DNA of 64,000 nt from assembly GCA_964291315.2 (NCBI GenBank), contig OZ219753.1, positions 2,272,001-2,336,000 of the forward strand, given 5' to 3'. The notes under the pieces were generated by a model, which made no database searches, was not told the origin of the DNA, and worked only from the letters and a program-made list of their open reading frames with translations. Made by a program: the position numbers and the translations under genes. Origin of the DNA: Candidatus Poribacteria bacterium. Lineage in GTDB: Bacteria > Poribacteria > WGA-4E > WGA-3G. Positions 27,820 through 31,517 of this stretch are shown here, piece after piece (the stretch's first letter is position 1; every line of letters starts with the position of its first letter).

Positions 27820-28773
27820 ATGCTTAAAGCAGGCTTTATCGGAGCAGGTGGACGCAGTCAAGGCGCACATTATCCAAACGTCAACCGGCTTGAACATGAC
27901 GTTGAAATGCTTGCAGCGTGCGAACTAGATGAAGAAAAACTTGCACAAGTCGCGCATAAATATGAATTTCCCCACACTTTCACAGACCACCGGAAAATGT
28001 TGGATACAACAGATTTAGACATTGTCTATTGCGTGATGAATGAAAAATGGATTTTGAAAACCGCCTTGGATTGTCTCAACGCTGGCAAGCATTTATTCAT
28101 TGAAAAACCACCCGGGGCCAACAGTGATGAAACGCAACAGTTATTAGAGGCAGCAATTGCAAATGATGTTTATTGCATGGTCGGATTTCAACGGAGATAT
28201 GCCGCTGTCACGCGTGAAGCGATGCGACGTGTTGCAGAAAAGGGACCTGTTACATTAGCCGTCACCACTTTTAACAAACAGATGCTCGGGCAGAATCGAG
28301 ATTTTACAACAACGCTTTGGAACGATGTCTGCCACGTCGTCGATTTGCTCCGGTACATGGCCGGTGGTGAACCGGTGGAAGTCACCGCGCATCGCGACAC
28401 GTTCGGGGCAGCACAGCGCAACTTCTACACCGCCTTCGTCCGTTTCGATAACAACGTCACGGGGGTACTCTTTGGGAGCCGCGCATCCGGTGGACGCGTC
28501 CTACGTTCTGAATTGCACGGTGTTGGTATCGGTTGCTACATGAAAATACCCGAAGAAATCGAAATTTACGAGGATAACAACAGAAGTGTTATACAAGGGT
28601 GGAAAGTTGACAATGTGGATCAACGCGATACACCCAGCTACGAAGGGGTGTTAACGATGCATCGCCACTTCGTCGATTGCGTCCGCGACCGAAAAGTCCC
28701 ACTCACAGATCTCCGTGATGTTATTCATTCAATGCATTTTGTTGACCAAATAGAAGGACCTCTGCCCAACTAA
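27820..28773 (+). CDS. Gfo/Idh/MocA family oxidoreductase
   Basis: GFIGAGG, EKPP, GFQRRY. Confidence 0.88.
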   Translation: MLKAGFIGAGGRSQGAHYPNVNRLEHDVEMLAACELDEEKLAQVAHKYEFPHTFTDHRKMLDTTDLDIVYCVMNEKWILKTALDCLNAGKHLFIEKPPGANSDETQQLLEAAIANDVYCMVGFQRRYAAVTREAMRRVAEKGPVTLAVTTFNKQMLGQNRDFTTTLWNDVCHVVDLLRYMAGGEPVEVTAHRDTFGAAQRNFYTAFVRFDNNVTGVLFGSRASGGRVLRSELHGVGIGCYMKIPEEIEIYEDNNRSVIQGWKVDNVDQRDTPSYEGVLTMHRHFVDCVRDRKVPLTDLRDVIHSMHFVDQIEGPLPN

Positions 28774-28855
28774 TTCTGGCTGTACATTTGGGTGAAACAT
28801 CAGAAATTGGAAATGTCCGCAAACCCATCCAATTAGGAATAGTTACGGATTTTTC

Positions 28856-28884
28856 TTGACATTCCTTTCCCGAAGCGGTATACT
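28856..28884 (+). promoter_or_regulatory. Sigma70-like promoter
   Basis: TTGACA-17-TATACT. Confidence 0.65.
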
Positions 28885-28970
28885 GTTTTTACTACACAGC
28901 GAATACTCCTTGATTGCATGCAAATCGCTATTTACATAGATATAGAGTTTTGAAGGGATAGCTTCAATCT

Positions 28971-29837
28971 ATGCTTGACGATAAACATTTAGAACACCAG
29001 CTCACTGAGGAACAGCGCGGCGCTATGGATGAGGATGGATACTTTATCGTTGAAAATGCCCTGCCATCAGTTCTCGTTGAACGTCTTGAAGTACGAGTGG
29101 ATAATATCTACCAGGCCCATCTTGACGCTGGTTACGATCCATACACCCAAAATCAGCTGAGCGAGCATAACAATTTCTTCTATCCGAATTTCCTCGGCAA
29201 GGATCAGGTTTTCGTGAATATTGTGGACTGGTACAAAACTTTCCCGAAAGTTTGGGGTATCTTGGGCTGGAATATCTACTCTTATCACAGTCACTTTATC
29301 ATTACACCTCCGCGCCCTGAGAGGGTTCGCCATAAACCTGCCCCGCTGGGCTGGCACCAAGATAGCGGACGCGTTAATATCGAAATTGAAAGCTCACCCC
29401 GACCGCGGCTCTCTATCAAGGTGGTCTATTGGTTATCTGACTGCTCGGAGCCCGGCCGCGGTAACTTTTATATCATCCCAGGGAGCCATTTGTGGGATAA
29501 ACTAGAGGATCGTCCAACAGACGGATCACTACCGAAGGGCGCGATACCTGTCTGCTGTAAGCCCGGGGATGCGGTTTTCTTCGATCGGCGTTTGTGGCAC
29601 ACACGCAGCGAAAACGATTCAAACATCACTCGCAAGGGGCTCTTTTACGGATACGGCTATCGATGGCTACGGAGCAAAGATAATATGACAATTCCAAAGG
29701 AGATGTTCGAGCGAAATGATCCAATTCGCCAGCAGCTGCTTGGCGGGGGGACAAATGCAAACGGGCATTTTTCACCAAGAAACGCAGATGTACCTCTGAA
29801 GGTATGGCTCGAAGAAAAAGGTGTCCTCGTAAATTGA
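28971..29837 (+). CDS. Phytanoyl-CoA dioxygenase family protein
   Basis: WHQD, IPGSH, GDAVFFDRRLWH. Confidence 0.9.
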   Translation: MLDDKHLEHQLTEEQRGAMDEDGYFIVENALPSVLVERLEVRVDNIYQAHLDAGYDPYTQNQLSEHNNFFYPNFLGKDQVFVNIVDWYKTFPKVWGILGWNIYSYHSHFIITPPRPERVRHKPAPLGWHQDSGRVNIEIESSPRPRLSIKVVYWLSDCSEPGRGNFYIIPGSHLWDKLEDRPTDGSLPKGAIPVCCKPGDAVFFDRRLWHTRSENDSNITRKGLFYGYGYRWLRSKDNMTIPKEMFERNDPIRQQLLGGGTNANGHFSPRNADVPLKVWLEEKGVLVN

Positions 29838-29887
29838 ACGAACAAGACTTTGAAACTAAGACAAAATACTCGTGGAGGTACAATATA

Positions 29888-30913
29888 ATGTTTCTAACGC
29901 GGTTGAATACAAGTATCTGGGCTGCTATTTTCATGACAGTCCTCATACTCCCAGCAGCTTCAGAGGAGGAAGCAGTGACAACTCCAGATAGGCTAAAAGT
30001 GGGGATGATCGCCCCCGATTTTGCACTGAAAGATGAACAAGGACTCGAACGAAATCTCAGTGACTACTTAAGTCAGAAAAACGTAGTTCTTGCCTTTTAT
30101 CCAAAAGACTTCACAGGTGGATGAACAACGGAACTCAACTCGCTCCGGGACAGTTTGAGCGAGATAGAAGCAACCGATAGTGTTCTCTTCGGTGTGAGCG
30201 TTGACTCTGTAGAATCACACAAACGGTTCTGTGCAGAGCAAAAATTCGGGTTCTCCCTACTGGCAGATACCGATTTTAAGGTGAGCAGGCAGTACAGCGG
30301 GATCATCGAAAACTTCAAAGCGTCAAAGCGGGCAACCTTTATCATAGATAAAGCGGGATACATTCGTTCTATTGACAGAGAAGTTAACACCAAAACACAC
30401 GGGGAAGATGTCGTTGCCCAGCTAAAAGAGGTGCTACCACAGATAGAAGTCGGACAAAACGCCCCCGATTTTATTGCAGTTGACGGTGAGGGCAAAACGT
30501 ACCAACTGAGCCAATTTCGTGGAAAGAAGAAGATAGTGCTCGCGTTCTATCCGCGCGACTTTGGACGTGGCTGAACAGCGGAAGTTTGCTCGCTCCGTGA
30601 TGAGTCGAGTAGTTTTGCCAAATACGACGCTCAGGTTTTTGGAATCACGACGAATGACGCAGATTCCCATCAGAAATTTGCCGAAGAAAACCAGTTGAAC
30701 TTCCCGCTTTTGGTAGATATAGGTCGCAATCTTTCGCTCCTATACGGGGCAACAAATGCCCTTGAAGGAAGGATTGCAAGATTAACCGTTATCATTGATA
30801 AAGAAGGGAAGATTCTGGCAATTGATAAAGAAGTTAACCCTAGTACACACGGGACAGATTTAGCAGATTTCTTTAAAAACTTGGAAACATCGAACGAATC
30901 TGATGCCCCGTAA
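29888..30913 (+). CDS. Secreted tandem BCP/PrxQ peroxiredoxin with two selenocysteines (TGA 30122-30124 and 30572-30574)
   Basis: One frame, 341 codons plus stop; FYPKDFTGG-TGA-TTE and FYPRDFGRG-TGA-TAEVC at the peroxidatic Cys position; GGAGG RBS; signal peptide. Confidence 0.85.
30139..30163 (+). promoter_or_regulatory. SECIS-like hairpin 1
   Basis: CTCGCTC-11 nt-GAGCGAG, starting 14 nt after the TGA. Confidence 0.6.
30589..30609 (+). promoter_or_regulatory. SECIS-like hairpin 2
   Basis: CTCGCTC-CGTGAT-GAG(T)CGAG with bulged T, starting 14 nt after the TGA. Confidence 0.6.
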
Positions 30914-31517
30914 GACTTTATCAACAATAACTGCCCGATTCGCCTGGGGTGTCTCTGTCGTTTTTAGCCCTTTTTTAGTCCCAATCGCAACAACCATCGG
31001 CGTAGTTCAAAAACATGCCGCACCTCAAGACCTTTACCGATGGATAGGGATTGTTGTGTTGTTTGTCACCGTGTTCCCGGTACTATCAATTGCAGTAATG
31101 GCGCGACTTGCCAAAGTCAGCGATTTACATCTAAAAAATAGAGAAGAACGGTTCCTACCTTTATGCTGCACGCTCGTTAGTATGATTGTAGGAACCTTTC
31201 TATTGCAGGAACTCGGCGCGGCTCGTGAAATTGTTTGGGCAGGTATCGCTTATATCATCAACTGCGTTATTTTTCTGGCCATTACCCTGACGTGGAAAAT
31301 CAGTTTTCACAGCAGCGTCGCCACCGGCTGTATTACCGTGCTGGTGATGCTTGTTAACCTACAATTGGGGTGGCTATTTCTGCTGATCCCACTGATTGCT
31401 TGGGCACGAGTCTATCGAGAACGCCATACACTCCTGCAAACCGTTGTCGGTGCCGTGTTAGCCCTTGGCAACACGTCCATTGTTTTGTATTTAGCCAAAC
31501 TCGGGGGAAGTGGTTAG
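30903..31517 (+). CDS. PAP2-like membrane protein
   Basis: Multi-TM; WKISFH and WARV...HTLLQ motifs. Confidence 0.7.
   Translation: MPRKTLSTITARFAWGVSVVFSPFLVPIATTIGVVQKHAAPQDLYRWIGIVVLFVTVFPVLSIAVMARLAKVSDLHLKNREERFLPLCCTLVSMIVGTFLLQELGAAREIVWAGIAYIINCVIFLAITLTWKISFHSSVATGCITVLVMLVNLQLGWLFLLIPLIAWARVYRERHTLLQTVVGAVLALGNTSIVLYLAKLGGSG

Follow-up and report, generated by a model that had tools for sequence, protein, structure and literature searches.

Selenocysteine (Sec)-containing peroxiredoxins (Prx) form an experimentally verified selenoprotein family, which Table 1 of PMC13188914 lists under PF00578 with the motif TxxU and one Sec. The gene described here was found in a 64,000-nucleotide stretch of Candidatus Poribacteria DNA, referred to as the window. 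Like the Sec-Prx of PMC13188914, its product has the Prx fold, a predicted Sec at the peroxidatic position and the PxxxTxxU motif, here in domain 1. It differs from them in having two fused domains, two predicted Sec residues 150 codons apart, each with its own putative hairpin, a predicted signal peptide and a candidate internal start. The two-Sec entry of PF00578 in PMC13188914 is a UxxC/UxxU motif within one site, unlike the tandem found here, and a tandem Prx is absent from the whole prokaryotic selenoprotein table of that paper.

The best sequence and fold matches of the individual domains are BCP/PrxQ and AhpE proteins (PDB 3drn Bcp1, 5epf BcpB, 1xvw AhpE and 2ywn); these are Cys enzymes and cover one domain only. 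Domain 2 shares with 2ywn the Cys at position +5. PprX of Caulobacter crescentus, a PrxQ-type peroxiredoxin, is located in the periplasm and receives its electrons from ScsB and TlpA, and the same paper counts Thr among the absolutely conserved Prx residues (PMC3322552), a residue that domain 2 of the present lineage does not have. The two systems are alike in the signal peptide on a BCP/PrxQ-type enzyme and in a DsbD-family electron donor, which is encoded in the genome studied here. However, PprX is a single-domain Cys protein, and the sections of PMC3322552 that deal with it mention no second start.

Internal in-frame starts that drop the signal sequence and yield a cytoplasmic form have been described for E. 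coli speA (10.1101/520783) and Neisseria pilB (PMC6210582). As with the present gene, pilB belongs to an antioxidant system, but its short form, starting at Met195, also loses a whole domain (PMC6210582). Both proteins are unrelated to the peroxiredoxin described here, and neither is presented as a selenoprotein in the relevant parts of these papers (10.1101/520783, PMC6210582). In contrast to speA and pilB, the second start is here deduced from conservation only. No peroxiredoxin case was seen in the sections consulted of a review of bacterial N-terminal proteoforms (PMC13515050).

The literature search, which extended mainly to openly accessible papers, returned no description of a tandem Sec-Prx or of a dual-start bacterial Prx. 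It likewise returned no work on a selenocysteine peroxiredoxin in Poribacteria, and the selenoprotein work it found for this phylum concerned hydrogenases. Among 153 other database proteins, P0022 (375 aa, ENA) is the sole one with two Prx motifs, preceded by a signal-like N-terminus. It has Cys at both sites, and in a quick tree its domains are sisters outside the Poribacteria groups, so that it is probably an independent duplication. Sec-peroxiredoxins as such are already known; judging by the sequence, what appears to be new is the tandem double-Sec form and the conserved second start.

Gene Structure and Conservation

The initial annotation had noted three open reading frames (29804-30124, 30155-30574 and 30695-30913) lying in one frame and interrupted solely by TGA, and this was confirmed, with the TGA codons at 30122-30124 and 30572-30574. 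Read with both UGA codons as Sec, the gene extends over 29888-30913 of the plus strand, from ATG 29888 to the TAA stop at 30911-30913, and comprises 341 codons plus TAA. The 341-aa product carries U79 within FYPKDFTGGUTTE and U229 within FYPRDFGRGUTAEVC. Two stretches of it match Pfam AhpC-TSA/Redoxin, and these matches cross each TGA, in line with the earlier view that homology runs through both. The TGA codons had also been placed exactly at the peroxidatic Cys of both Prx motifs, and the alignment with solved Prxs bears this out: U79 aligns with the catalytic Cys of M. tuberculosis AhpE and U229 with that of 2ywn.

The ribosome binding site noted ahead of domain 1 is the Shine-Dalgarno (SD) sequence GGAGG at 29874-29878 (plus strand). 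A GGAG-type site precedes the first start in most relatives, and the genome carries the standard CCTCCT anti-SD in a 16S-type 3' end. The 16S 3'-end motif occurs twice on the same strand, 1845 bases apart (G000:C4:3185873 and 3187718), which points either to an rRNA gene in tandem or to a duplication made in assembly. The promoter and terminator scan of 29600-31100 gave one site each, both on the minus strand and at chance level.

Neither TGC nor TGT, which would contradict the Sec reading, is present at the two sites. The contigs of 4/4 runs show TGA alone, without any other letter, at both of them, which rules out an assembly error there. The four runs belong to one study; two are near-identical and possibly the source, and two are about 2% different (about 30 differences). 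The expectation that automated annotation would split the gene proved correct, as public collections hold a 78-aa fragment of it. Relatives are present in these collections as fragments or as full-length proteins with Trp at the U sites, which is best read as the choice of code 4 by the gene caller.

Conservation was analysed on a codon alignment of 81 rows, consisting of the window and the best-scoring 80 of 216 loci. The titles of these 80 give Ca. Poribacteria for 77 and 'uncultured bacterium' for three. The rows are kin, 52 of them coming from one close group, and selection by score may favour leader-bearing genes. TGA is kept at both sites in 81/81 rows, which is more than expected by chance, given the free variation of the remaining synonymous positions. 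The nucleotide identity of 54 representatives averages 71%, with a minimum of 57% and a range up to 92%. In a set of 61 genomes, 54 have a two-domain match with at least two TGA codons, four have a one-domain match with one TGA, and three, which are incomplete (78-85%), have none. Phylum-wide, 157/176 genomes match: 153/158 within the order and 3/17 outside it, the latter with weak scores only.

The pairing of TGA with Cys in homologues, which the initial annotation had proposed as a check, holds for the more distant Prxs, i.e., AhpE, 2ywn and the distant library matches, in which all 139 motifs found carry Cys. Among orthologues, none with a Cys codon at either site was found. It is almost certain that 29888-30913 encodes a tandem two-domain peroxiredoxin with Sec at both peroxidatic sites.

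A Gfo/Idh/MocA oxidoreductase and a PhyH dioxygenase are encoded upstream of the gene (27820-29837) and a PAP2-like membrane protein downstream (about 30903-31517). Among the best 80 of the 216 loci, these neighbours occur at 49, 48 and 54, respectively, almost only in the close group. Other lineages carry other neighbours, and the arrangement was treated as synteny, not as a functional system.

Predicted Leader Peptide and Probable Internal Start

Approximately the first 25 residues (29888-29962, plus strand) constitute a predicted Sec-pathway signal peptide, which would be cut after P-A-A-S. In the 81 rows (window and best 80 of 216 loci), the leader is open in every case and 27-34 aa long, its lengths differing by whole codons. 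Its best 11-residue hydropathy is at least 1.97 in all 81, and its N-region is net positive in 68/81. A stretch of equal length upstream of the leader contains a stop in 71/80. The third-position bias is weak in the leader (0.197/0.171/0.226 vs. 0.106/0.059/0.415 in the core), and the coding status of the leader therefore rests on its frame, its hydropathy and its own SD site.

Directly behind the predicted cut, codon 30 is an in-frame GTG (29975-29977, plus strand), the predicted start of a 312-aa cytoplasmic isoform. It is preceded by a second SD sequence, GAGGAGG (29963-29969, plus strand), which is carried by Glu codons and matches the first SD in strength (-11.3 kcal/mol in the window). 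At codon 30, the same 81 rows (best 80 of 216 loci) have GTG (53) or ATG (28) and nothing else, and the tree requires only two switches between them. All 81 rows combine this start codon with an SD of at most -6.5 kcal/mol, the next-best position reaching 6%, and Glu27 is encoded by GAG in 71/73 rows having Glu. In the 52 close relatives, only 5/75 four-fold columns hold a single codon, namely 29, 30, 31, 33 and 228.

Leaderless relatives offer a further comparison. Five single-domain genes from one genus and one paralogue have an SD with ATG or GTG at the equivalent place and begin eight residues before the same VG motif; in a seventh leaderless relative, TGA stands directly ahead of ATG. The database proteins P0019-P0021 were called from the codon-30 start. 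Among the six most distant tandem genes, L132 and L133 have a weak internal SD (-5.6). In L134 and L136 the leader is followed by an in-frame Met, but no SD there passes the threshold. As a control based on heuristic gene and signal calls, the signal-peptide-like genes of the genome were searched for such a site at codons 23-41, and it was present in 5/337. These five genes, with an SD and ATG or GTG at codons 23-36, are located at G000 C3:226369, C4:3102600, C4:645153(-), C4:447321(-) and C4:1919527(-).

Were the double-Sec tandem peroxiredoxin solely exported, the internal SD and GTG would be an unused relic of an ancestral start or a Glu-rich by-product behind the cut. An unused relic should drift, yet Val30 is GTG in 52/52 close relatives, the other 17 of the 18 Val columns being all polymorphic, and codon 30 holds start codons only, across three families. 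The rarity of such sites in the control genes also speaks against this explanation. In its favour, the leader comes with an SD and ATG of its own in almost all of the 81 rows (window and best 80 of 216 loci), acidic residues are common after signal cuts, and Glu codons resemble SD sites. On balance, we regard exclusive export as unlikely.

The opposite possibility, that the internal start alone is used and the protein is cytoplasmic, with the 'signal peptide' being an untranslated or vestigial leader, is very improbable. The equal strength of the internal SD, the seven leaderless relatives and the weak third-position bias of the leader are compatible with it. However, it leaves unexplained a leader that is open, in-frame and hydrophobic with its own SD and ATG in 81 genes (window and best 80 of 216 loci), down to 57% nucleotide identity, and whose length changes in whole codons.

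The sequence data are most simply explained by the use of both starts, and the gene probably makes both an exported and a cytoplasmic isoform. Taken jointly, the double-Sec gene and its two isoforms also appear likely. The product had been described as secreted; the predicted leader, assessed by hydropathy and charge only, agrees with export, but 'secreted' is probably half of the answer, since the internal start would add a signal-less form.

Selenocysteine Machinery and SECIS-like Hairpins

The genes selA, selB, selC and selD, whose search had been recommended in the initial annotation, are all present in the genome. The scores of selA (515 bits), selB (329) and selD (357) exceed the curated cut-offs, as does that of the one tRNA-Sec, which has a UCA anticodon and adjoins selB. 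The selD gene itself contains one in-frame TGA. A tRNA-Sec is present in 4/5 other genomes of the order, and the genome in which it is missing is a 91% complete draft. TGA ends 426/1960 open frames of at least 300 codons and is thus a normal stop, which rules out a global reassignment of UGA.

Decoding of the two UGA codons as Cys, by a tRNA of the tRNA-ReC/SelC* type, or as Trp instead of Sec would have to be reconciled with these data and is highly improbable. A single tRNA scores above the tRNA-Sec cut-off, the genome has selA and selD, TGA serves as a stop, and only one tRNA-Cys (GCA) and one tRNA-Trp (CCA) were found in the genome. This outweighs the Trp at both sites of the database entries and the precedent of SECIS-dependent UGA-to-Cys tRNAs, which PMC13582414 reports for some bacteria. 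The 78-aa fragment of the public gene calls would agree with a set of three small genes or with a pseudogene carrying two nonsense mutations, but these readings can practically be dismissed, as both stops fall at a catalytic codon and are TGA in 81/81 rows (window and best 80 of 216 loci), and conservation past them is at the protein level, with synonymous change being free.

Insertion of Sec at both UGA codons is also consistent with the sequence downstream of each of them. According to the description in PMC13582414, the bacterial SECIS consensus is a hairpin just 3' of the UGA whose apical loop has G at its first or second position. The SECIS-like hairpin 1 (30139-30163, plus strand) has a 7-bp stem, CUCGCUC/GAGCGAG, and a loop that starts with CG. 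Hairpin 2 (30578-30618, plus strand) has a bulged U and the apical loop CGUGAU at 30596-30601. In both predicted hairpins G is second in the loop, matching the consensus. The synonymous-change ratio, calculated over 54 representatives, is 0.29 at codons 84-92, the lowest value of the gene, and 0.38 at codons 234-242; these two minima coincide with hairpins 1 and 2, respectively. The 14 lowest intervals (0.29-0.54; median 1.05, sd 0.19) are all situated within codons 82-95 or 228-244.

Neither hairpin is unusually stable, the folding z being -0.82 for hairpin 1 and -1.78 for hairpin 2. The upper stem of hairpin 1 varies from one lineage to another, so that the hairpin has a weak consensus fold over 54 rows (-0.44 kcal/mol), and its register in the lineage of the window differs from that of relatives. 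The covariation analysis of 16 sequences, in which 86.7% of cells are paired and the stem is nearly invariant, revealed no two-sided change, and all five measures were at or below those of shuffles.

Three more redoxin genes of the genome have TGA at the catalytic codon: G000:C4:2253556(+) with RGVWUPFC, C4:1109021(-) with RMGTUGIC and C1:471382(+) with RGTWUPNS; the first two have lipoprotein-like leaders. A crude selenoprotein scan of the genome yielded 147 candidates, the majority probably being noise. Motifs among them were taken by us to be those of formate dehydrogenase, thioredoxins, a DUF3179-like protein and HMA proteins. Further candidates are G000:C3:254290(-) EACUG, C4:878546(+) TWUPLC, C4:696622(-) RAUHAP, C1:527648(+) WUGWC, C4:1793018(+) WUPAC, C4:1113542(+) MTUGSC and C3:363107(+) MTUQAC.

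The Two Peroxiredoxin Domains

Domain 1 (29990-30436, plus strand) is BCP/AhpE-like and contains P72, T76, U79 and R148, with no Cys at +5 in this genome. Domain 2 (30440-30886, plus strand) contains P222, G226 at the Thr position, U229, C234 and R298. In the 81 rows (window and best 80 of 216 loci), the PxxxTxxU motif of domain 1 is kept, with Pro in 79/81 and both Thr and Arg148 in 81/81. Its residue at +5, the place of the resolving Cys in BCP/PrxQ enzymes of the helix-2 type, is Cys in 40/81 and otherwise Arg, Asn, Ser or Lys, the window having Asn. In domain 2 of the same rows, Pro and Arg298 occur in 81/81 and the +5 Cys in 80/81, and the position of the motif Thr is occupied by Gly in the window and in 55/81, Thr being kept in 26/81. 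Because domain 2 of this lineage is without the Thr of PxxxTxxU, domains 1 and 2 may differ as peroxidases. A role of Cys115 as the helix-3 resolving residue of domain 1 was considered and rejected, as this position is Cys in only 3/81 of these rows.

The AlphaFold model of residues 30-341 showed two Prx folds (pLDDT 89.6, pTM 0.89), and the confidence of the whole-chain model suggests a defined packing of the domains. The best fold matches, Bcp1, BcpB and AhpE, are single-domain proteins (TMq about 0.44). Based on the NCBIfam BCP equivalog NF006960, the domains score 96.4 and 82.8 bits, both below the cut-off of 140, and the whole protein passes only by summing the two (173.5 bits). The score with the PrxU model NF040737 is 120 vs. 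a cut-off of 270, and no NCBIfam model specific for the tandem protein was found.

The single-domain genes are mosaics: before the motif they are nearer to domain 1 (49-54% vs. 38-43% for domain 2), and after it nearer to domain 2 (66-73% vs. 42-45% for domain 1). This is as expected if the tandem had collapsed by deletion between its two repeated motifs. In the quick tree, the domain 1 rows form one group (99) and the domain 2 rows together with the single-domain rows another (99). The relation between the two groups is an open fork in this tree, which therefore does not show that the tandem arose by a duplication within the order.

Several related genes were observed in other genomes. L138-L142 (G053, G041, G047 and G038) are leaderless single-domain Sec-Prx genes, G053 having two copies about 25 kb apart. 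In L143 (G125:C108:3405-4310), a paralogue that has no leader, the catalytic motif has been lost from the first domain and U-x4-C is kept in the second. L145 (G043:C1:1503437-1504447) is a different tandem Prx-like gene with two in-frame TGA codons (YRGKFUPFC and YRGQWUPFC). Its product, which starts with a signal-like N-terminus and has a long extension at the C-terminus, is 29% identical to that of 29888-30913; a similar match is present in G060.

Proposed Mechanism and Significance

The presence of the machinery and the constraint downstream of the TGA codons are observed, and on this basis SelB with tRNA-Sec would recode each UGA through its own in-gene hairpin, 17-45 nt downstream. Translation from ATG 29888 would give a pre-protein directed by its signal peptide to the cell envelope, where the leader would be removed. 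Translation from GTG 29975 would give a 312-aa protein that has no signal peptide and would stay in the cytoplasm; compared with the processed form, it would lack about four residues. In both compartments the selenolate would attack peroxide. Domain 1, with the full P-T-U-R set and no resolving Cys in this genome, would act as a 1-Sec peroxidase, and domain 2 could form a Se-S bond between U229 and Cys234. With the conserved Thr lost in this lineage, domain 2 may reduce peroxide less effectively or may serve as a relay for the re-reduction of domain 1. Electrons could be supplied by thioredoxins in the cytoplasm and by the DsbD-type protein in the envelope, the latter in the manner of Caulobacter PprX (PMC3322552); the genome has one DsbD-family gene with a thioredoxin domain.

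The idea that electrons pass from domain 2 to domain 1 is a guess based on the altered motifs, to be regarded as possible but tentative. More doubtful still is the complete scheme, in which double recoding and two starts would deliver one and the same double-Sec peroxidase to the two sides of the inner membrane, as a core gene of the order, with domain 2 serving in one family as a Sec/Cys relay that recycles the 1-Sec domain.

The gene represents a prokaryotic selenoprotein architecture of two Prx domains, two predicted Sec residues and two putative in-gene SECIS elements, which the table of the 2026 inventory does not show. It is near-universal in an order of Poribacteria and is fragmented by public annotation. 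With two near-identical SECIS elements per mRNA, it would be a natural test system for the efficiency of successive Sec insertion and for the export of Sec proteins. Its natural variants, with Thr or Gly, with or without the +5 Cys, with or without a leader and with one or two domains, would be useful for studying the Prx mechanism. If the internal start is used, it would be an unusually well conserved case of bacterial dual targeting of an antioxidant enzyme, seen by sequence alone.
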